From Escherichia coli (lineage in GTDB: Bacteria; Pseudomonadota; Gammaproteobacteria; Enterobacterales; Enterobacteriaceae), in assembly GCF_030013595.1 (NCBI RefSeq), contig NZ_CP122768.1: a DNA stretch of 64,000 bases. One strand, 5' to 3'. Under the pieces are notes generated by a model. That model worked only from the letters and a program-made list of their open reading frames with translations. It was not told the DNA's origin and ran no database searches. Position 1 is the first letter of the stretch. Each line of letters opens with the position of its first letter. The position numbers were made by a program, and so were the translations under genes. Of this stretch, positions 1,646 to 54,993 are shown in pieces.

Positions 1646-3226
1646 TTAATCTTCGGACTGGTCGTCGGTGTGCTGCGGCTCCTGTCGTTTCGTTGCGGCA
1701 CTACTGCCTCCTTTATCACTGGCCGGATCGGTATCAAATACCAGATCCAGCTTGCGGTTTTCATCAATTTCGGCCTTGCGCCGACGTTTGACATCATCCG
1801 GATTACGACCACCAGCACGTACCCAGTCTGATTCTGTCGCCGCTCCACCACGAATCTGGATTTTCCAGGCCTCAGCCTCCTTAACAGGGTCAATCCACGG
1901 CATCACTGGTCCGGAATACACCGCGGTATACAGTGAAGAACGGTCAAGATCGCGGGGTAGCCTGATAACACCGGATGCCACAGCCTGTTTCAGCCATGCA
2001 CGATACATCGGGCGGGTGACGGCACCAATAAACCAGTCCTGCAGGATCAGGTAGCCATCAGTGGATTCAACCAGCTCCTGACGCTGGGCGCTGTAAGTGC
2101 CGTTATAGTTGCGCGCTGTACTGGAAAAACTCAGACGACTGCCCGCCGCCACGGCACGCAACTGACCATTACGAAAAGTTTCAAGGTTAGGATTGGGGCG
2201 ATCCGACTTCACCATTCCGATTTCTTCGCCGGGTTTCAGATCATCGTAAATAATGCCTGGCTGAATGGTAAGCTCGCGTTCCTTATCCTTGCTGCCATTA
2301 CCATCCGGTTCATAGCTCTGCCCGTCGCCTTTGCGGATGTACATCCCCAGAGCAGCGGCGATCCTTGCTGCAGTCAGCTCATAATCTTCATAATCTTTCA
2401 GGGCACTGAGGCGGATCAGCACACCGGACAACAAAGACGTCCCGCGCATCTGGTGCAGACGGCGAACAAATTTAAGATGCAGCATTCGCTCTGCATCCAC
2501 TTCTTTGGTTTCCATCTGCCGTCCGGATACGGGACGGCTTTTATACACCAGATATTTTTCGGGACGCCCCCAGTCATCAACAAACACGCCCTGATTCAGC
2601 CTGTTGCTCTCATCACTGGTCATGGGAATAAAGTCCGGCTCGAGCGCCTCCAGCCAGAAATGAACACCGGCAGAAGGCGTCAGGCTGTTTATGCGCCCGG
2701 AAACCATCTGGGCAAACACCTCACCATCGCGCAGCCAGGTACGCAGCATCAGACGTTCCAGCATCGGACGGGTAAACTGCCCGGTGACTTCCGGGCTGAC
2801 AGACCATTCACTCCATCGGGTGCGAATCTCCGCTGCCAGATCACGGGCAATGGCCCCATTGCGTAATACCGGATGTGGCTCGACAATAATCCCGTTTTTC
2901 CCCACCACCCGTTCTTCCAGCTTGTCAAATACACCAATAACCAGATCGTGGTTGTTATCAAGGTAACGGGCCTGCTCACGTAACGACACGGCCCCGTACT
3001 GGCTTAGCTGGTCGGCAGTTCGGTTCTCCCGTCGGGCTTTGTGTGTCCGCGTCGTTTTTACGGCTTCATAAGCCTGGATCACCGCACGGGAACGCAGCCT
3101 TGCCGCTTTCCATCCAGGTGAAAAAACGCCAATCACATCATCAAGAATTGCCATCAGAACCTCGCCAGCCGGTACCCGGGATGCCCCCGTCGTCGTGTAA
3201 TCAGAGCCGCAAGGCGGCGCTCCCAC
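1646..3226 (-). CDS. Phage portal protein (lambda gpB-like)
   Basis: 526-aa ORF between terminase and protease genes; size and position as lambda B. Confidence 0.8.
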   Translation of the reverse strand: MGAPPCGSDYTTTGASRVPAGEVLMAILDDVIGVFSPGWKAARLRSRAVIQAYEAVKTTRTHKARRENRTADQLSQYGAVSLREQARYLDNNHDLVIGVFDKLEERVVGKNGIIVEPHPVLRNGAIARDLAAEIRTRWSEWSVSPEVTGQFTRPMLERLMLRTWLRDGEVFAQMVSGRINSLTPSAGVHFWLEALEPDFIPMTSDESNRLNQGVFVDDWGRPEKYLVYKSRPVSGRQMETKEVDAERMLHLKFVRRLHQMRGTSLLSGVLIRLSALKDYEDYELTAARIAAALGMYIRKGDGQSYEPDGNGSKDKERELTIQPGIIYDDLKPGEEIGMVKSDRPNPNLETFRNGQLRAVAAGSRLSFSSTARNYNGTYSAQRQELVESTDGYLILQDWFIGAVTRPMYRAWLKQAVASGVIRLPRDLDRSSLYTAVYSGPVMPWIDPVKEAEAWKIQIRGGAATESDWVRAGGRNPDDVKRRRKAEIDENRKLDLVFDTDPASDKGGSSAATKRQEPQHTDDQSED

Positions 3227-3366
3227 TCCTGCCGTCCCTGCCGGATCTCAGATAAGTTTTCCATGGTCATCTGCTGACCATTAAAGGTGACGGATTTTCC
3301 GTCCAGCACCGCCATTTCAGCTTCCGTATAACGCTGAATCATGGCTTCGATATCATTCTGGTTCAT
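3154..3366 (-). CDS. Head-tail joining protein (lambda gpW-like)
   Basis: About 70 aa ending ...RRRGHPGYRLARF, resembling the gpW C-terminus; start overlaps the terminase stop (ATGA). Confidence 0.6.
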   Translation of the reverse strand: MNQNDIEAMIQRYTEAEMAVLDGKSVTFNGQQMTMENLSEIRQGRQEWERRLAALITRRRGHPGYRLARF

Positions 3367-5465
3367 AACCATCCTCCGGAAGTCAGCCAGGGGTTAACAT
3401 CGTCAGTTACTGTTTTCTTCCGTTTTTGTTTTTTAACAGGCGTGGATACCGGTTCCGGTGAGGATGACGGTTCGGTACTGTCCTGGACACACTCCAGCCA
3501 GGTTTCCCGGCTCGCCCACTCCGGTGCATCCGGCCAGCGGATCTTTTCGTATCCATGCAGAATGACCAGAGCCTCGGCATACACCATCAGGTCAAAAGCT
3601 TCGTTGGCACCGCGACCAGGCTTACTCCATTTCCCGTCACTGCTCCGCTCTTCATACGTCAGTTCGTCGTAAAACCAGCTCCCCAGCCAGTCAGGGAAAT
3701 GCACATAGCCGGGACCTGGCGAGTCACGCCATAACGCGTTATTCACCCGGTCTTTCAGTGCATCCGTCTGAAGAAGCCAGAGCGGCACATCACCTGCGGC
3801 CTGCGCCCGTCGGCCCGTTCGTCCGGTGTTATCAGGGAATGTACGAGTGATCAGTTTTGCGCGCCGGATGCTGTCGCCCTTAAACAGGTAAATACGTTTA
3901 CCAAGGCCATCACGACGGCAACGACGCCAGAATTTATAGGCATTATCAGTGACCCCGTCTTCACCGCCGGAGTCCACCGCCATTGCCATCAGTCGCATTT
4001 GTTGAGAAGGATCGGAGGCCAGCGGCCAGCTTTTATGAAAAACATCCGTCAGCAGGACATCCCAGTCTTCCGGATAGCTGGCCGGATCAATTCGCTGGCT
4101 CTCCCCGTCGCTGTCACCGCGCAATGACTGCGTGATGTTGTAACGATCAATAATCCAGCGTTCGCCACGGCTGCCATAGCCCGTTACCTGAACCACAAAA
4201 CGGCGATGACGTCCCGCCTGCACATCCACTGTCGCCACAAGGAAATTAACGCCATCCGGCACACTGCGGGAAGGAACTGGCTCTGCCCGCTGCTCAAGCA
4301 GTTCACTTTTTCGTTGCTCCATGCTGGCGCGGGGAAGATAAGGTAATCCCCAGTCGGTATTGATAACCGTCTTGAGTGTTTCTTCACTTCCGGTTGTCTC
4401 GTATTCCTGTTCTGCAGTAAGCAGTTTGTAAACGAGTTGCGAGAGTGTCTGGTAAGCAGCTGCCGGACCCTCCATCCAGAATGACGCAATACGTGAGCGT
4501 CGGGGATCACCATAACGACTGCCATCCGCATTGATGGATTCACCATCCCGCAACCAGACCCCACGTCCGTTCAGCTCACGTTTTTGTTCAGGCATAATCC
4601 GTCCTGAACAGGAAGGGCACTGAATATAAGCCGCCTCACTTGCCAGCACGGGATCGGCAATATCACGGAAACCAGCAACCACATCGCCGCAGGGCTGAAA
4701 ATACTCACCACAGTGTGGACAGGGCCAGTACCAGCGACGGCGATCACCACGGTTATAGAGCGACAGGATCCCCGTGGTTGGTGGAGCCTCATGCGGTGAA
4801 GTCCGTCGCCATTTCACATCCTTCACATCCCTGCCGGGGGAACTCTCCACCAGCGTCATACCGCTGGACATAAATGTGGTGGTACGTTTTGAGGCAAGAG
4901 AGAAAGCATCCCCCTCGCCATCAATATCTTCCGGAAAACGGTCATAATCCGTCAGCGCGACGCATTTATAATCTGATGAGGACATGATATTGACTGACGG
5001 CCAGCCGATTTTCAGGTAGTTACCAGCAAGGAATGTTCTGTCATAAACGTTGTTGTCATTTTTGTTCGGACTCAGGCGACTGACCACTTCCGGGCTGACG
5101 CGAAACGTTCTGGCAAGTCGTTTTTTGGAGTGTTCGCGGGCTTTTTCCTCCGTCATCTGAATGATCAGCATATCAGCAGGATCGCAAATCACGTTGTAAA
5201 TCACCCAGCCGTCAATCAGGCCGATAGTCTTGCCAGTTCGTGCCGGGCCAACAAATATCACTGCGTCGTATTCACGCGAGGCCAGGCAGTTCATCGGCTC
5301 AATAACATACGGTGCCACCAGCGGATCCCACGGGACTGAGTTCCCTGCCCCCATGGGCACCCGCATATACTGAGCAACGGCATCAGCAACCCGCATTCGT
5401 CTCGGTGCGCGAAGGATATAACCTGAATCGGTTCGTGCTGCCTTTGCGGTTTCCTGATTCAGCAT
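3363..5465 (-). CDS. Terminase large subunit (GpA-like)
   Basis: 700-aa ORF with ATPase P-loop VGPARTGKT, directly downstream of the small subunit. Confidence 0.9.
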   Translation of the reverse strand: MLNQETAKAARTDSGYILRAPRRMRVADAVAQYMRVPMGAGNSVPWDPLVAPYVIEPMNCLASREYDAVIFVGPARTGKTIGLIDGWVIYNVICDPADMLIIQMTEEKAREHSKKRLARTFRVSPEVVSRLSPNKNDNNVYDRTFLAGNYLKIGWPSVNIMSSSDYKCVALTDYDRFPEDIDGEGDAFSLASKRTTTFMSSGMTLVESSPGRDVKDVKWRRTSPHEAPPTTGILSLYNRGDRRRWYWPCPHCGEYFQPCGDVVAGFRDIADPVLASEAAYIQCPSCSGRIMPEQKRELNGRGVWLRDGESINADGSRYGDPRRSRIASFWMEGPAAAYQTLSQLVYKLLTAEQEYETTGSEETLKTVINTDWGLPYLPRASMEQRKSELLEQRAEPVPSRSVPDGVNFLVATVDVQAGRHRRFVVQVTGYGSRGERWIIDRYNITQSLRGDSDGESQRIDPASYPEDWDVLLTDVFHKSWPLASDPSQQMRLMAMAVDSGGEDGVTDNAYKFWRRCRRDGLGKRIYLFKGDSIRRAKLITRTFPDNTGRTGRRAQAAGDVPLWLLQTDALKDRVNNALWRDSPGPGYVHFPDWLGSWFYDELTYEERSSDGKWSKPGRGANEAFDLMVYAEALVILHGYEKIRWPDAPEWASRETWLECVQDSTEPSSSPEPVSTPVKKQKRKKTVTDDVNPWLTSGGWL

Positions 5466-8534: not shown

Positions 8535-8609
<75 letters not shown>

Positions 8610-19284: not shown

Positions 19285-19304
19285 CCCTTACCTCCTCATC
19301 AATT

Positions 19305-19329
19305 AGCCACCCGAAGGTGGCTTTTCATT
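19305..19329 (+). terminator. Rho-independent terminator after cI
   Basis: AGCCACC-cgaa-GGTGGCT followed by TTTCATT. Confidence 0.65.
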
Positions 19330-19804
19330 ACTCATCAAATTGCATATCTCGCAACAAAAACACTTGCATAATGCGCAACTTCATTTTATCTTTCTTTCCA
19401 GACAAACAAACAAGGTACTAACAAAATTTGGTTGTAACACGGCGTATGGCACATGCGTCGTTAGCGGTCTGGGGACGTTAAAGGGGACAATCCACTCCTT
19501 GCTCGGGCAAACAAACCAGGTAGCCGGAATGTGCAAGTCAATGATGATGCTGATAAGACGCCTAACCAGCGTGGCGATTCGGTTTGACGCCTGGGAAGAG
19601 ACCAGGGTGCAACGATGAGGGCATTTATGGAACCGCGACAAAGTGTGGTGCCGTAACTGGCTAAGTGCTCTCAGCGTTGTGGTGAATGCGCAGGCTGATG
19701 CGCGAAAGACATTGCAGATATTGCGGAAAAGAGCTGTTCGGCGGGGCAATTAAATGCCCGTGAGAGTCTGAAATAACCGCAAGCCGGAGATCAGCACCGG
19801 TCAC

Positions 19805-19869
19805 CACAACAGCCACTGCTTTGGCGGTACCAGTTTGTACACTTGCTTCCGGCTGGTACCGTCCTTTTT
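19805..19869 (+). ncRNA. Candidate DicF-like sRNA
   Basis: TTTGGCGGTACCAGTTT resembles the DicF core as recalled; followed by GGTACCAG...CTGGTACC hairpin and CCTTTTT; lies in a ~700-nt stretch with no convincing ORF. Confidence 0.35.
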
Positions 19870-20083
19870 ACAAAACAGAGAAGAGCATCACCGGACGACG
19901 GGCTCATAACCCAATCCATCCGGGCGGCTGCCACCGCAGGTGTTCTTCTCTGTTTTGTGGAGAAACTAACCGCCCCTGCGGGGGCATCTATTGAAACGTA
20001 ATTGACTCAATAATCGCCGGATGGTGAGGGCTTCCTTTTCCCAAAATTCAGCGCGGTGCAGCGCATATAAAGTGGAGAACGAA

Positions 20084-20620: not shown

Positions 20621-20973
20621 ATGTTTTCGAAATGGAAGGGTTTCTTCGTGGGAGATGTGTACCGCGAGATCTGAAAGTGAATGAAACGGATGCTGAATAC
20701 CTAGTGCGTAAATTCGATGCGCTTGAAGCTAAATGTGCAGCACAGGAAAACAAAGTAATACCAGTGTCAACTGAACTGCCACCAGCAAATGAAAGTGTTT
20801 TGTTATTTGATGCTAATGGAGAAGGCTGGCTGATTGGCTGGCGTTCTCTCTGGTATACATGGGGGCAAAAAGAAACCGGAGAATGGCAGTGGACATTTCA
20901 GGTCGGGGACCTTGAAAACGTCAATATCACTCACTGGGCAGTAATGCCAAAAGCACCGGAGGCTGGAGCATAA
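20611..20973 (+). CDS. Hypothetical prophage protein (YfdS-like)
   Basis: 120-aa ORF overlapping neighbours in an operon. Confidence 0.55.
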   Translation: MRMNVFEMEGFLRGRCVPRDLKVNETDAEYLVRKFDALEAKCAAQENKVIPVSTELPPANESVLLFDANGEGWLIGWRSLWYTWGQKETGEWQWTFQVGDLENVNITHWAVMPKAPEAGA

Positions 20974-21593
20974 TGACCACATTTACCGATAAAGAACTGA
21001 TTAAAGAAATCAAAGAACGAATCAGCAGCCTAGAGGTTCGAGACGATATTGAGCGCCGTGCTTATGAAATTGCTCTGGCATCGCTAGAAGAGGAGCCGGT
21101 GGCATGGCTGCATTCAGAAAATGGCTTAGGTATTCCGGCAATAACGAGGAGTAAAAACATTGCTGACAGTTGGTTATCAAAGGGCTGGTATGTTCAGCCG
21201 CTATATATAGCCAAGCCAGTGCCGGTGGTGCCAGATGCTCGTCCGTCTTTAAATAATGGCATAGTCGGTTTTGATGAAGGCTGGAACGCCTGCCGCGCCG
21301 CCATGCTTCATGGTGCCGAACCTGTAAGCCAGACTTACAAGTTGAACAAGCTGTCGGGCAACTCTCCAGTAACTCCGGATGGTTGGATAAGCTGTAGTGA
21401 GCGAATGCCGAACGATAAACAGTATGTTTGGTGTTGGGGGAAGCCTTACGGCTGGACTGAGTGCGATACCTTCGAAGGGTATTACGATTGGTCGAGAAAC
21501 AAATGGTGGGCAGTTACTGACGATAGGGAAGAACCGGCATCGAAAGTAACCCACTGGATGCCGCTACCGGAGCCGCCGCAGGAGGTGAAGTAA
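20973..21593 (+). CDS. DUF551-domain prophage protein
   Basis: 206 aa; C-terminal ...VTHWMPLPEPP motif. Confidence 0.6.
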   Translation: MTTFTDKELIKEIKERISSLEVRDDIERRAYEIALASLEEEPVAWLHSENGLGIPAITRSKNIADSWLSKGWYVQPLYIAKPVPVVPDARPSLNNGIVGFDEGWNACRAAMLHGAEPVSQTYKLNKLSGNSPVTPDGWISCSERMPNDKQYVWCWGKPYGWTECDTFEGYYDWSRNKWWAVTDDREEPASKVTHWMPLPEPPQEVK

Positions 21594-21787
21594 TGAACAA
21601 CTTAATGACAACTAAACAAGTCGCCGACTTCTGTGGCGTTTCAGTATCGACTGTTCTTCGCTGGAACAGCGTAAACAGGAGAACTGGCCAGAAATACAGG
21701 CCTGACTTTCCAGATCCTGATATTAAATCCTGCCCAAATAAATGGGCATCACGCAAGATATACAGATTTGCTGGAGTTATTGAGTAA
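21593..21787 (+). CDS. Excisionase/AlpA-like small DNA-binding protein (putative)
   Basis: 64 aa; TTKQVADFCGVSVSTVLRW winged-helix-like; position near int. Confidence 0.5.
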   Translation: MNNLMTTKQVADFCGVSVSTVLRWNSVNRRTGQKYRPDFPDPDIKSCPNKWASRKIYRFAGVIE

Positions 21788-22000
21788 CGTGTATTATCTC
21801 AGATGGGAGCTGACATATCTATGGCACAGACCAAACTAATCTGACAGTCAAGTCTGTGCCAAGAGCAAACGTTGCTAATTTAATGTTAAGTTGTTTCTCT
21901 TGAAGACGATCACGCTATGATACAACCTATAAAATTATCGATATCTGAGAGAACCAGTAAAAAGTTTAAGTCAAGGGTTCTATAAGTGTGTTAATTTATT

Positions 22001-22030
22001 GGGAAGCAATAAGCTTCCCTTCTCTTTATT
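22001..22030. terminator. Hairpin terminator between convergent xis operon and AIPR gene
   Basis: GGGAAGC-aataa-GCTTCCC followed by T-rich tract. Confidence 0.45.
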
Positions 22031-23726
22031 TAGGTACGCTATCAACACTTTTGAGAATCGTTGATGTTAAAGGCTGCGACTTTAGTAAGTCTCGAGAAAT
22101 ATCCGGATCTGGTATAGCTATTTTTACTAAACTCTCAAGTTTTTCAAACCACTCCCCATCATTCATTGAGAATAAGTTATGAAGAGCTTCATTTTTATTT
22201 TTGAACCCCCAAGCCTTATAATTATTACCACAGTATTTTGACGCAGCAGTTAGAATATGCCAGCGTAATTTTGAATACTTCCCATCAAACCTCTTATTTG
22301 AGATAAGAGCCTTTAGCCTATACAAGCAATAGCAAGATATATAATAATCATCCTCGAGGGCATCGGAAGAGAAAACCTCATTAAGTAAGTCACCAGTTAA
22401 CCTATTTGGATAACGACTGGAATAATCTGGTCTCATCATAACAATAGCAGCATATGCTCGCGCAACTTCTCTGATATCAAATATGCGTACTGGAGCTATA
22501 CTTTCTGAACTATACTGCCCCTTTCTTCTCTCAAAATAAATTTTATTTCCTTCAATAGCACCTTTAGCATTAAAATAATGTTCTAATTCCCTTAATTTTT
22601 TTAGCGTTGAAATGAACTGTGCATCTTCAACTTTAGATTGTCTATTCGTAGCTCGTACAATGTCATCAAGGATCGCTGGCTCATCGGTTTCAATTAATTT
22701 AATCATTAAACTAACTGATTCATCTACTTGAATGTCTTTTGATATAAGAACATTAGACGTTTGACATCCATTAACAATTTGAAAATCTCGTATAAAAATT
22801 TCTTGCCCTGCAGGCCTCACGCTTGATGCAACTATTGTCACTCCATTATTCATTAAACCAAATCTTGCTTTTTTTCCATCAGTATCTAGTGTTCCTGCAA
22901 TTTCTGAATTTACGTCACCATCAATTCCCAGAAAATCTCTAACATTTTCTTCGAATAATTTTTTTCGAGGGTTTCCATTTTTGTCTTTAAGTATAGAATC
23001 AATAAAACTACGAGCTTTGACTGTAGCTACATAGGCATTATTAATATTAGGGGCCGCTGGGAATGGAGCATAGCCTATTGTAGGAAGTTTAGCTTCTATT
23101 GGACCTTCCGCAGCAAGCCAAAGCTCATGAATCATGTCTTTGTGAGCCATAATGAAGGATGTTTCATGTGAAAACCCGAGTGACTTTAAGCTTTTTTCAC
23201 CCGATGCAAATGCAGCTTTTATTTCTCTGGCCTCTGTATTTTGTGCAGCACTAAAAAAATATGCGTATAAGTCTGGAAGGCCATTTTTGACTCTGCCGAT
23301 ATTAGCAAATATCAAGTTGAACATTTTTTTAAAGTCCGCTAGATATTCACTGTGGGGTTGTTGTGGCGCTGGTGAAAGATAATCTCTTATTGACGCAATG
23401 TAAGAGTCTATTTCCTGTTTGCTCCACTTCTCCGATGACTTAGCTTGCGTGAATACTAATGAAACTTGAAACTCGCGACGTGAGTTTTGGAAAATCTCCT
23501 GAAGTTCTTCAGTTGAAAAAATGGCTCTGTCGTCTAAAAATAAAAATGCTCCATCAATACCAGGGTCCGGGCCTTCATACACAAGATCACTGACCTCAAC
23601 TTTGTCGCCTGAGTATTTTGAAAAAGCACAATAGTTCACAAACGCCTCAAAATTTTTGGTCTCCTCATAGGGCGCAGCGAATGCTTTGCAAAAGGCATCG
23701 AAATAAGATTTCGTGACTAAATGCAT
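22026..23726 (-). CDS. AIPR-family abortive infection protein
   Basis: 566 aa from ATG at 23726 (AAGGAG Shine-Dalgarno 7 nt upstream); FGLMNNGVTIVASSV ... FQIVNGCQTSNVL resembles the AIPR core; very AT-rich. The ORF-track N-terminal extension is translation of AT-rich upstream DNA. Confidence 0.7.
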   Translation of the reverse strand: MHLVTKSYFDAFCKAFAAPYEETKNFEAFVNYCAFSKYSGDKVEVSDLVYEGPDPGIDGAFLFLDDRAIFSTEELQEIFQNSRREFQVSLVFTQAKSSEKWSKQEIDSYIASIRDYLSPAPQQPHSEYLADFKKMFNLIFANIGRVKNGLPDLYAYFFSAAQNTEAREIKAAFASGEKSLKSLGFSHETSFIMAHKDMIHELWLAAEGPIEAKLPTIGYAPFPAAPNINNAYVATVKARSFIDSILKDKNGNPRKKLFEENVRDFLGIDGDVNSEIAGTLDTDGKKARFGLMNNGVTIVASSVRPAGQEIFIRDFQIVNGCQTSNVLISKDIQVDESVSLMIKLIETDEPAILDDIVRATNRQSKVEDAQFISTLKKLRELEHYFNAKGAIEGNKIYFERRKGQYSSESIAPVRIFDIREVARAYAAIVMMRPDYSSRYPNRLTGDLLNEVFSSDALEDDYYISCYCLYRLKALISNKRFDGKYSKLRWHILTAASKYCGNNYKAWGFKNKNEALHNLFSMNDGEWFEKLESLVKIAIPDPDISRDLLKSQPLTSTILKSVDSVPK

Positions 23727-23982
23727 AAAAACTCCTTTCTGAAATAAGATAAGTTTATTAGAAACAACAAGATAAAGATAAAGATAATAGTAATACAAGT
23801 TAAAGACATACTGCATCACATAAGTTGGTCAAGATCAATAAATCAATAAGGATCCCCTATGTTTTATGTATTGTTGATAATTCTATCACCTCTTACTTCT
23901 GGTCTAAGCGTAACCTACTCAAGAATGCCATTGAAAATGTCCACTGTTCGCTCAAAACAGACTGTCAGGGCTACGCAAGCTG

Positions 23983-25206
23983 TCAGGTAGATTCTGGGCC
24001 AGTACAAGTAACGATCGATTCAACTCTCTCCCACCATGCCTGATATGCTTTACGCTGTTCTTCTAGATAATCGCTCTTGTCATAAACCTGCCAAACCCCT
24101 GGCAGTTTATGGCCGAGCATTATTTCTGCAATATGAGGAGCAGTAAGATCAGAAAAGTTTGTTCGTGCTGTTCGCCTCAAATCATGAAGAGACCAATGAG
24201 GGAATTGATGCCCCAAACGCCTCCATGCGTACTGCATTAAATTGTAAGGCAGCGACTGCAATGATGTTCGACCAACGGGTTCCCTGCTTCCTTCCTTAGT
24301 AAAAAGCATATCGGAACCATTGTTCATAGAGATAGCGTTCTTTATAAGCTCCTCCACCGGTTCAATAATGGGCCTCTTTAGCGGTTCGCCTGTTATCTCT
24401 CCAGTCTTATGTCGTTCTGGTGGTACAGTCCATACCTTATTAATGAAATCAAAATCGCCCACCCTGGCAGTAATTAGCTCTGAACTACGGCAGCCAAAAT
24501 GCAGCAATAGCTTAATGAAGGCCCGGTATTTAGGAACCATTCGAGAACCATCGATCGCAGAATAAAGGATTTTAATTTCATCATGTGTCAGAAACCGTTT
24601 CTTCTGACCTTTACGGATATCCATATCTTTACCCGTGATATCCGACAGCGGGCGAGTTTCAATGAGCTTTCTCTTATACGCCCAGACATGGGCCTGCTTT
24701 GCGTTAATTAGCAATCGGTCTGCTATTGCTGGAGTCTTAGTGCTAAGAGGCTCCAGGACTTCTAACCAATCATGCAATGTAGCTGCATCGTGAGGGATAT
24801 TCCCGATTTTAGAGAACAGGTGCAGCTCAAACGAGCGGAGTATCTGTTCAGAACCTTTTTTATTTTTTACACAATATGCTTCATACCAGGCACGGATCAC
24901 AGACTCTACCGTCATGGCTTCAGTAGCTTTTCGTTTTTCAGCCTGCTTGACCAATCGTGGATTACGGTTTGACTCAAGTTCACCACGGAGACGGATAACT
25001 TCTTCTCTGGCCTCTTTTAATCCAGTTGCCGGGTAAGTTCCGATATCAAGACGCTCACCTTTCCCTGCCCATTGATAACGATATTGGAACACTACGCGAC
25101 CTTTCGGTGATACTCTGACAGACAGACCATCACGATCGGATTTAACCAAAACCTTATCACGTTCCTTTCCAACGACTGAACGCAACCACGCATCAGACAA
25201 CGCCAT
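23983..25206 (-). CDS. Tyrosine integrase (P4-type)
   Basis: 407 aa; C-terminal catalytic region HDLRRTARTNFSDL ... HIAEIMLGH ... VYDKSDY. Confidence 0.9.
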   Translation of the reverse strand: MALSDAWLRSVVGKERDKVLVKSDRDGLSVRVSPKGRVVFQYRYQWAGKGERLDIGTYPATGLKEAREEVIRLRGELESNRNPRLVKQAEKRKATEAMTVESVIRAWYEAYCVKNKKGSEQILRSFELHLFSKIGNIPHDAATLHDWLEVLEPLSTKTPAIADRLLINAKQAHVWAYKRKLIETRPLSDITGKDMDIRKGQKKRFLTHDEIKILYSAIDGSRMVPKYRAFIKLLLHFGCRSSELITARVGDFDFINKVWTVPPERHKTGEITGEPLKRPIIEPVEELIKNAISMNNGSDMLFTKEGSREPVGRTSLQSLPYNLMQYAWRRLGHQFPHWSLHDLRRTARTNFSDLTAPHIAEIMLGHKLPGVWQVYDKSDYLEEQRKAYQAWWERVESIVTCTGPEST

Positions 25207-25214
25207 TACTCACC

Positions 25215-25272
25215 TTGTACAAATCGCAAAACACCTCTGCTGTTTTGTACATTATGTACAAGCATATGTACA
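25215..25272. repeat. Four TGTACA-containing repeats beside int (candidate arm-type integrase sites)
   Basis: TTGTACA (25215-25221), TTTGTACA (25244-25251), TATGTACA (25253-25260), TATGTACA (25265-25272). Confidence 0.4.
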
Positions 25273-25426
25273 GATTTTTGATGAAAGCAAACTGATCGAT
25301 TTAAAGTTACATGAAAGAATTTTCAATTAAAGAAGCCACATAACCAAATGTATTTAAATGAGTTATATAGCTCAAGCTCAATTAACTGAAAGGATTTTGA
25401 AAGAGTAAAAGAGCTTTAATTTGGGC

Positions 25427-25501
25427 TTAATTATTGGGGTGAGAAATAATGGCAAAAGTGCGGCGCTTCGCCACCTCTTGCAAATAAGGAGACAACGTCA
25501 T
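25427..25501 (-). pseudogene. prfC: prfC 5' fragment (codons 1-22) truncated by prophage insertion
   Basis: Minus strand reads [22 protein letters not shown] then NN-stop; the host P-loop ...SHPDAGKTT is broken after P22 at 25435/25436. Confidence 0.8.
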
Positions 25502-25590
25502 AATTCTTTCTTCTTGAGTAAGCGGCATCGCGCCGCGCTTGTTGAAAACGAAAAATTGCGGCTATTTTACCCATCAACGGGGGGAGGCAA

Positions 25591-26268
25591 TCAGTGTTTA
25601 CACAGGAGCTGCTCCAGTTCGTGCAACGAAGAAACGGTCCAGGTAGGCGCGATGCCTTCTGGTTGCTCGCGATTGTGCGCATTCAGCCAGCAGGTCGCAA
25701 GCCCGGCGTTGATGCCACCGAGAATATCGGACTCGGCAGTGTCGCCAACCATCAGCACGCGTGAACGGTCAGGATTGCCCGCCTGTTCCAGCGCATAATC
25801 GAAAATTTTCTTATTCGGTTTGGCAACGCCAACTTCTTCGGAAATCACCAGCAAATCGAAATAATCACGCAGGCCCGTGCGTTCCAGACGCACTTGCTGC
25901 AAGGCGCTAAAGCCGTTGGTGATGATGCCAATTTTAGCGTTGCCACGAATGGCGTTAAGCAGAGAAACCGCGCCCGGCAGCGGCGTACAGATTTCCGCCA
26001 TCGCATTAATAAAGGCTTCGTTGAGTTTACCCGGCTCGACGTTCAGCCGTTCGGCCCAGCTCTCAAACCGCCCGTGCTGAAGCTGTAATGAAGTGATCGC
26101 GCCGTTTTGATAATCCACCCACAGTGGCTTGTTAACGGCCTGATAGTCCTGAAAATCTTCAGCGGTAAAGGTGACGCTGTAATCAAGAAACATCCGCTGC
26201 AGGCCGGTGAATGAGTCAAAGGTAAACAGCGTTTCATCGGCATCAAAGAAAATCCAGTCCCACTTCAT
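25591..26268 (-). CDS. yjjG: Pyrimidine 5'-nucleotidase YjjG (HAD family)
   Basis: 225 aa [15 protein letters not shown]...; K-12 synteny. Confidence 0.95.
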
Positions 26269-54916: not shown

Positions 54917-54993
54917 AGCGCGGTGCGGATGTGCGCCAACACACCCGCACCGCTCATCACAATCACTATTCCAGGAGAATAGCAGTTATGACT
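54917..54993 (-). ncRNA. symR: SymR antisense sRNA (approximate, placed from K-12 knowledge)
   Basis: In K-12 a 77-nt antisense RNA overlaps the symE 5' UTR and start codon; coordinates inferred, not read from sequence signals. Confidence 0.3.

Follow-up and report, generated by a model that had tools for sequence, protein, structure and literature searches.

We describe here a gene of Escherichia coli that lies in a lambdoid prophage, within a DNA stretch of 64,000 nucleotides (contig NZ_CP122768.1 of assembly GCF_030013595.1; this whole stretch is referred to below as the window). The best overall explanation of our observations, and one that we consider likely, is that this is a stand-alone anti-phage gene of the AbiU type (AIPR family), which was acquired horizontally as an AT-rich cassette in the slot between the excisionase gene xis and the integrase gene int of the prophage, and which would encode a gated nuclease. 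Membership of the encoded protein in the AIPR/AbiU family is practically certain and a role in anti-phage defence is quite probable. The gated-nuclease mechanism in the form given below is proposed tentatively, with somewhat more doubt than confidence. When used for an AIPR protein, the term "abortive infection" is a label that comes with the family, assigned here from sequence. The gene and its translation signal are located as follows.

22026..23726, minus strand: AbiU/AIPR gene, 566 codons plus a TAA stop (open reading frame, Pfam, PADLOC and the RefSeq coding sequence (CDS) WP_001419254.1)
23732..23737, minus strand: Shine-Dalgarno sequence AAGGAG, 5 nt upstream of the ATG (direct sequence reading)

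An earlier note on this DNA had recognised an AIPR signature in the central region of the protein and had proposed a Pfam search for AIPR (PF10592) and a search for defence systems as checks. Both searches bore the identification out. The Pfam AIPR model PF10592 matched residues 258-518 (model positions 1-292 of 308, E=8.5e-43), and the PADLOC AbiU model (PDLC02357) was matched end to end, with residues 2-562 aligned to model positions 3-535 of 537 (E=2.6e-111). The two peptide strings quoted in that note, FGLMNNGVTIVASSV and FQIVNGCQTSNVL, are indeed found in the protein, where they span the family-invariant positions N294-G295-T297 and N319-G320-Q322. In addition, the protein matched PHROG 1841, "Abi alpha-like abortive infection mechanism" (E=1.9e-70), and the AIPR domain was matched in 98/98 sequences of an alignment of full-length homologues with about 25-35% identity, on which the residue counts given below are also based. 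In RefSeq the identical protein is listed as "AIPR family protein" (WP_001419254.1, MULTISPECIES Enterobacteriaceae).

The family is large, with 3553 clusters (at 50% identity) matching at E<=0.001 and 476 at E<=1e-30, and the best 150 clusters consist mostly of full-length proteins of about 565-580 aa. The exact protein occurs on at least 1000 contigs, and the DNA of the gene was found at >=99% identity in 58 of the 5426 complete E. coli genomes; 58 of the 59 DNA-match records are >=99% identical, so that these copies are nearly clonal. The closest relative outside E. coli among those observed is encoded by a Burkholderia glumae plasmid (72.7% identity). "AIPR family proteins" of Lactococcus plasmids aligned over residues 54-476 with 24% identity (E=9e-20), none of them being confirmed as AbiU1 of pND001. 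Among phage homologues the best was a full-length match in Salmonella Fels-2 (30% identity, E=2e-82), and some mycobacteriophages carry homologues with 26% identity; a DNA-level search of a phage collection with the AIPR gene gave no match.

The minus-strand open reading frame (ORF) can start at the GTG at 23819 or at the ATG at 23726 and runs to the stop at 22026. We place the start at the ATG, because AAGGAG lies 5 nt upstream of it, the alignments of the homologues begin at residue 1 of the ATG-start protein and the RefSeq CDS is the identical 1701-nt frame; the GTG would merely append a Tyr/Leu-rich peptide encoded by the AT-rich leader. Starting from the ATG, the product has 566 aa, the length given in the earlier note, which had also rightly described a very AT-rich gene preceded by a strong Shine-Dalgarno sequence. 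The G+C content of the gene is 0.369 (0.279 at third codon positions), as against 0.473 in the segment from yfdR to xis, 0.453 in int and 0.541 in the host segment from yjjG to holD. At this composition a stop-free run of 566 codons has a chance probability of about 2e-19.

According to a confident AlphaFold2 model of the full-length protein (predicted local distance difference test (pLDDT) 94.2, predicted template modelling score (pTM) 0.89; pLDDT 86.9 for a model of residues 146-566), the protein is divided into the following regions, and this model-based domain assignment is what is new in the present analysis.

23292..23726, minus strand: residues 1-145, predicted PD-(D/E)xK nuclease domain, FokI/MspJI/Mrr-like, with E27, D58 and Q94-x-K96
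22977..23291, minus strand: residues ~146-250, small alpha/beta linker domain of unknown role
22173..22955, minus strand: residues 258-518, Pfam AIPR domain, of which ~255-370 have a ParB/sulfiredoxin-like fold in the model and the remainder is helical

The modelled N-terminal domain has a restriction-endonuclease-like fold, its matches in the PD-(D/E)xK group being FokI (9.6), MspJI (7.6), N.BspD6I (7.6), AF1548 (7.5) and AspBHI (7.4), followed by LlaBIII, Avs4, CdiA-CT, HamA, Can2 and NucS. The model likewise contains a fold of the ParB/sulfiredoxin (Srx) type, with matches to ParB-N (6.3), PadC (6.2), Srx (5.3) and BrxU (5.1). No solved relative turned up in the PDB, whether the query was the single protein or a profile of the 98 sequences, and a Pfam scan of residues 1-256 gave nothing below E=8 and no match to a nuclease family such as Mrr_cat. 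The residues expected of such a nuclease, in the order E...D...Q-x-K, are conserved in the alignment (E27 in 97/98, D58 in 98/98, Q94 in 96/98 and K96 in 86/98) and all are present in the window protein, where they are the putative catalytic residues of the domain. A recent review (2026) reports a resemblance to FokI for the AlphaFold model of AbiUi from Lactococcus (PMC13064643), and an older paper assigned an N-terminal HEPN domain to AIPR proteins (PMC3506569). An N-terminal HEPN domain was rejected for the window protein, which has no Rx4-6H motif and gave no HEPN fold matches. Moreover, no Pfam match to a DUF1524 His-Me nuclease was found, and the C-terminal region is helical and without conserved catalytic residues.

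The AIPR domain carries the invariant motifs NVR (261-263), NNGxT (293-297), NGCQT (319-323), TNxQ (360-363) and ERR (399-401), and the residues N261, R263, N294-G295-T297, N319-G320-Q322, N361 and E399-R400 are all present in the window protein and in 96-98 of the 98 homologues. In the AlphaFold2 model NGCQT is positioned at the junction of the strand 309-319 and the helix 321-329. What would be the equivalent strand-helix junction carries a phosphate-binding motif in ParB (GERR), DUF262 (DGQQR), DndB (DGQHR) and sulfiredoxin (GCHR), and NGCQT retains the Gly, the Gln and the Cys, the latter as in Srx.

The position of the gene was examined by BLAST comparison of 20901-25600 with relatives that carry other cargoes. 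Homology breaks off at 21843-21873 and sets in again at 23971-24001, which delimits a variable slot whose left end is about 60 nt past xis and whose right end is at the stop codon of int. The slot and its flanking genes are as follows.

21847..23989, no strand assigned: variable cargo slot (~2.1 kb), with the AIPR gene as its only substantial ORF (BLAST breakpoints)
21593-21787, plus strand: xis, excisionase, 64 aa, the last gene of the early-left operon (PHROG 1553, E=7.7e-36)
23983-25206, minus strand: int, tyrosine integrase, upstream of the AIPR gene and co-oriented with it (PHROG_1, E=3.6e-75; RefSeq)

The PHROG matches to an excisionase and an integrase on either side of the gene agree with the location between xis and int given in the earlier note. 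The gene lies 256 nt downstream of int and, again as claimed there, opposite to the early-left operon, the plus-strand segment from yfdR to xis being convergent with the minus-strand AIPR gene. In most of the RefSeq records inspected (e.g. AR434, Ecol_224 and GPEC389) xis is without annotation, and in one relative it is called "DNA-binding protein".

The content of the slot was sampled in eleven genomes at the same chromosomal site. Besides AIPR/AbiU, the alleles comprised a CHAT-domain protein that is a full-length match to BovA of the Borvo system (PADLOC, E=2.5e-241), a protein annotated in RefSeq as "anti-phage dCTP deaminase", a 239-aa hypothetical protein with no PADLOC match, a 331-aa hypothetical protein on the other strand with only a marginal PADLOC match to "2TM effector" (E=0.0055), a 345-aa hypothetical protein, and a pair of small genes of 160 and 150 aa. 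Since related prophages hold Borvo, the dCTP deaminase or other cassettes in this place, the xis-int slot is a defence-cargo hotspot. Thus, the defence-cargo position beside the integrase, to which the earlier note had pointed, is now supported by comparative data and goes beyond analogy, as sister prophages have Borvo/BovA, the dCTP deaminase or other cassettes in place of the segment 21847-23989. The family of this integrase was detected in 699 of the 5426 E. coli genomes and the AIPR cassette in 58, i.e. about 8% of those. About 13% of the complete E. coli genomes have the slot. The four uncharacterised cassettes are candidates for new defence genes; in the sister prophages, named by our own locus handles, they are found at these positions.

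24305-25024 (minus) in L004 and 3477-4196 (minus) in L010: uncharacterised cassette
24232-25227 (plus) in L005 and 3132-4127 (plus) in L008: uncharacterised cassette
3349-4386 (plus) in L009: uncharacterised cassette
3424-4400 (minus) in L007: uncharacterised cassette

Taken together, we propose that an AT-rich single-gene cassette was gained horizontally into an exchangeable xis-int slot and that the gene is presumably expressed from the lysogen, where it would protect the host, and hence the prophage, against other phages. The AIPR module, with its ParB/Srx fold and NGCQT, would act as a sensor or switch; on binding a nucleotide and/or phage DNA, it would license the N-terminal FokI/MspJI-like nuclease, possibly via the self-association that FokI-type domains need for making double-strand breaks. 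The nuclease domain (E27, D58, Q94-x-K96) would then be the DNA-cutting effector, and if phage DNA were cut after injection or during replication, this would be consistent with the delay in phage transcription that has been described for lactococcal AbiU. In Lactococcus lactis, AbiU lowered phage plating 10- to 100-fold and delayed phage transcription (PMC13064643).

Several points weaken this proposal. The canonical nucleotide motif (GERR/DGQQR/DGQHR/GCHR) is not present, N319-G320-C321-Q322-T323 being without the Asp and the Arg, and nucleotide binding is uncertain for this reason. The gated-nuclease model leaves self-sparing without an explanation. No consensus minus-strand promoter was found between int and the AIPR gene in the promoter scan, which returned 14 sites against 9.4 ± 3.1 expected and thus no enrichment. 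Finally, the experimental evidence for AbiU is confined to lactococcal and Vibrio members.

The same protein with the same defence role could alternatively confer direct, restriction-like immunity, as a type IV-like enzyme that acts on modified or marked phage DNA (cf. MspJI/AspBHI and GmrSD/BrxU/SspE) and lets the infected cell survive. We consider this rather unlikely, although the present observations would fit either outcome. Pfam scans revealed no domain recognisable as a reader of modified bases, such as SRA or YTH, and the lactococcal prototype is classed as an abortive infection (Abi) system that gives modest protection against unmodified phages (PMC13064643). The gene might also have nothing to do with defence and encode either a regulator that binds DNA or a factor for prophage maintenance or addiction, with the nuclease-like domain serving for DNA binding only or as a prophage-stabilising toxin. 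In line with this, DndB has been described as an ATP-dependent repressor whose ParB-like domain is related to AbiU1/AIPR (PMC3632139; PMC12704722), and the AIPR gene adjoins int and xis, where recombination-directionality and maintenance functions also reside. However, the conservation of E27, D58, Q94 and K96 across 98 homologues that are this divergent would argue for an active enzyme, sister prophages fill the slot with validated defence genes, and no antitoxin candidate is present. Moreover, only about 8% of the prophages with this int family carry the gene (58 vs 699 genomes), and it is therefore dispensable for the prophage life cycle. A non-defence function is thus, in our judgement, highly improbable.

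The possibility that the gene is an intact but H-NS-silenced, AT-rich hitch-hiker without a current function in this host deserves slightly more attention, yet it too seems improbable. In favour of it, the G+C content is low (0.369 vs 0.45-0.54 in the flanks), no consensus promoter lies immediately upstream of it, and the near-clonality of the copies precludes an assessment of purifying selection. At the same time, the frame is full-length, none of the conserved residues is missing and the ribosome-binding site is strong; moreover, at least 1000 contigs encode the exact protein, and co-orientation with int makes read-through transcription possible.

A bolder combination of claims can be put forward as a conjecture that is more doubtful than not. 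AbiU would be a distinct class of gated nucleases with a degenerate ParB/Srx sensor, in which NGCQT stands for DGQQR/GERR and an almost invariant Cys occupies the position of the catalytic Cys of Srx; it would sense a nucleotide or a feature of phage DNA, which would lead to self-association of the FokI/MspJI-like domain, and it would be an independently assembled, domain-swapped counterpart of GmrSD/BrxU. The same conjecture holds that the xis-int slot of lambdoid prophages at the prfC/yjjG site is an uncatalogued defence hotspot, whose four cassettes (239 aa; 331 aa; 345 aa; 160+150 aa) include new defence systems.

Two hairpins lie at the left side of the slot.

21818..21864, plus strand: stable hairpin just 3' of xis, at the left edge of the slot (fold -20.2 kcal/mol, z=-4.3)
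22001..22019, no strand assigned: G+C-rich 7-bp hairpin, 6 nt past the AIPR stop, with a T-run on the plus strand only (terminator scan)

The stem of the hairpin downstream of xis is preserved via compensatory substitutions in the Borvo-carrying relative L003 (GGCACAGAC/GTCTGTGCC vs GGCACAGAGC/GCTCTGTGCC), and it may be a terminator or a processing site that marks the left edge of the slot. The hairpin at 22001-22019 folds with -12.4 (plus) and -13.3 (minus) kcal/mol (z about -3.4). Because its T-run is on the plus strand only, it looks more like a stop for read-through from the early-left operon than like one for the AIPR gene, provided that it acts as a terminator, as its structure would suggest. 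The inverted repeat I3 (CTGACAGTC/GACTGTCAG), found at both edges of the slot, was considered as a pair of recombination sites and rejected, because its left arm lies in the loop of the hairpin downstream of xis and its right arm is not kept as a repeat in other alleles; by our own arithmetic, chance would yield about 30 such 9-mers in 4.2 kb. Visual inspection had also suggested a conserved hairpin downstream of int, and this candidate was rejected, as it folds no better than shuffles (z=+2.3).

The left half of the window is a lambdoid prophage, with terminase, portal and ClpP-capsid fusion genes, lysis genes, Q, a cI-like repressor and CPS-53-like early-left genes (yfdR and others), which is inserted between prfC and yjjG. 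Both prfC and, separately, a yjjG-adjacent site have been listed as insertion sites of lambdoid Shiga toxin (Stx) phages (PMC8065619). In relatives, the cI-like repressor is separated from yfdR by yfdP and yfdQ; this prophage, like that of Ecol_224, is without both, and a stretch of about 740 bp at 19285-20020 (49-54% G+C) contains no convincing ORF. Between int and yjjG, at ~25433-25501 on the minus strand, RefSeq annotates in every relative a 69-nt truncated "hypothetical protein" pseudogene, possibly a piece of a gene that was duplicated at the attachment site of the prophage. Two co-oriented genes of unknown function at 10275-11435 on the plus strand, of 237 aa (phrog_7651) and 147 aa (phrog_8552), run counter to the surrounding late/Q region and lie just upstream of the gene for the Q antiterminator; neither PADLOC nor NCBIfam gave a match for the pair, and relatives have at this position a 339-aa hypothetical protein, a DUF6731 protein with a hypothetical protein, or a 148-aa hypothetical protein. 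The position looks like a second cargo slot.

Rfam matches to C4 antisense RNA (83.6 bits) and isrK (67 bits) at 17145-17333 on the minus strand fall within the 5' part of the ORF of a 383-aa "Rha family phage regulatory protein" in RefSeq (16542-17693), which suggests an immunity region of the P1/P7 c4-ant type and possibly an over-extended CDS start. A tRNA-Gly gene (anticodon TCC) at 8535-8609 on the minus strand lies within the prophage, where it separates the lysis/late region from the terminase genes. An Rfam match to the SymR antitoxin RNA (93.5 bits; 54917-54993, minus strand) falls in the chromosomal part of the window and is unrelated to the AIPR gene.

As an annotation, the finding is ordinary: standard annotation already recognises the gene correctly, and the AIPR identification, the AbiU label and the carriage of AbiU by prophages and phage/satellite hotspots are all already in databases or papers. 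A Vibrio AbiU has been validated in a preprint, which describes a phage-encoded inhibitor, "Surt", as well (bioRxiv 10.1101/2024.06.14.598830), AbiU is among the cargoes of P2/P4 hotspots (bioRxiv 10.64898/2026.02.27.708500), and it has also been recorded in Salmonella prophages. In the literature we found no description of the xis-int slot with its cassette repertoire, no explicit two-domain, residue-level mechanistic proposal for an E. coli AbiU, and neither a mechanistic study nor an experimental study in E. coli of AbiU/AIPR. The residual interest is modest and is that of an entry point to the unsolved mechanism of AbiU and a pointer to uncharacterised hotspot cassettes. The two-domain reading, with its named conserved residues, leads to concrete mutants and assays in a tractable E. 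coli representative of AbiU. The slot is a clean natural site of cassette exchange, and its unannotated cassettes are reasonable candidates for new defence genes.

Among known systems, the gene is most directly comparable to AbiU (AbiUi/AbiU1) of L. lactis, with which it shares a full-length match to the AbiU model, the AIPR domain, a single-gene organisation and carriage on a mobile element. The lengths are similar (566 aa vs ~570-590 aa), and the predicted FokI-like domain has its parallel in the published AlphaFold model of the lactococcal protein (PMC13064643). AbiU is a single-gene system, and the cassette 21847-23989 correspondingly holds the AIPR ORF only, sufficiency being read here from gene content. 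In contrast, identity to the lactococcal plasmid proteins is only ~24%, the host is Gram-negative and the carrier a lambdoid prophage, and the window gene lacks the HEPN-type partner gene AbiU2. With MzaE of the MZA system the protein has the AIPR core in common (PADLOC E=6.4e-09), but that match is limited to residues ~250-405. An identity as MzaE was rejected, as the score of 37.7 bits compares with an NCBIfam cut-off of 1050 and the cassette consists of a single gene, with no Mza partner genes.

The type IV restriction and phosphorothioate-sensing nucleases GmrSD, BrxU and SspE (DUF262 + DUF1524) would follow a similar sensor-effector logic, and this likeness is one of analogy and not of membership. 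The order of the domains is reversed, the nuclease of the window protein being N-terminal; it is of the PD-(D/E)xK type in the model, whereas theirs is a DUF1524 His-Me finger, and the motif is NGCQT here and DGQQR there, with no match at the sequence level. The nuclease domain differs from FokI, MspJI, AspBHI and Mrr-like enzymes in having no sequence-level Pfam match and in being joined to an AIPR domain and not to a DNA-binding domain that reads a sequence or a modification. As regards its location, the slot resembles the P2/P4 hotspots and the prophage morons beside int, where unrelated defence genes likewise replace one another at a fixed position in the backbone; it differs from the P2/P4 hotspots in being the xis-int gap of a lambdoid prophage with a CPS-53-like early region at prfC/yjjG.

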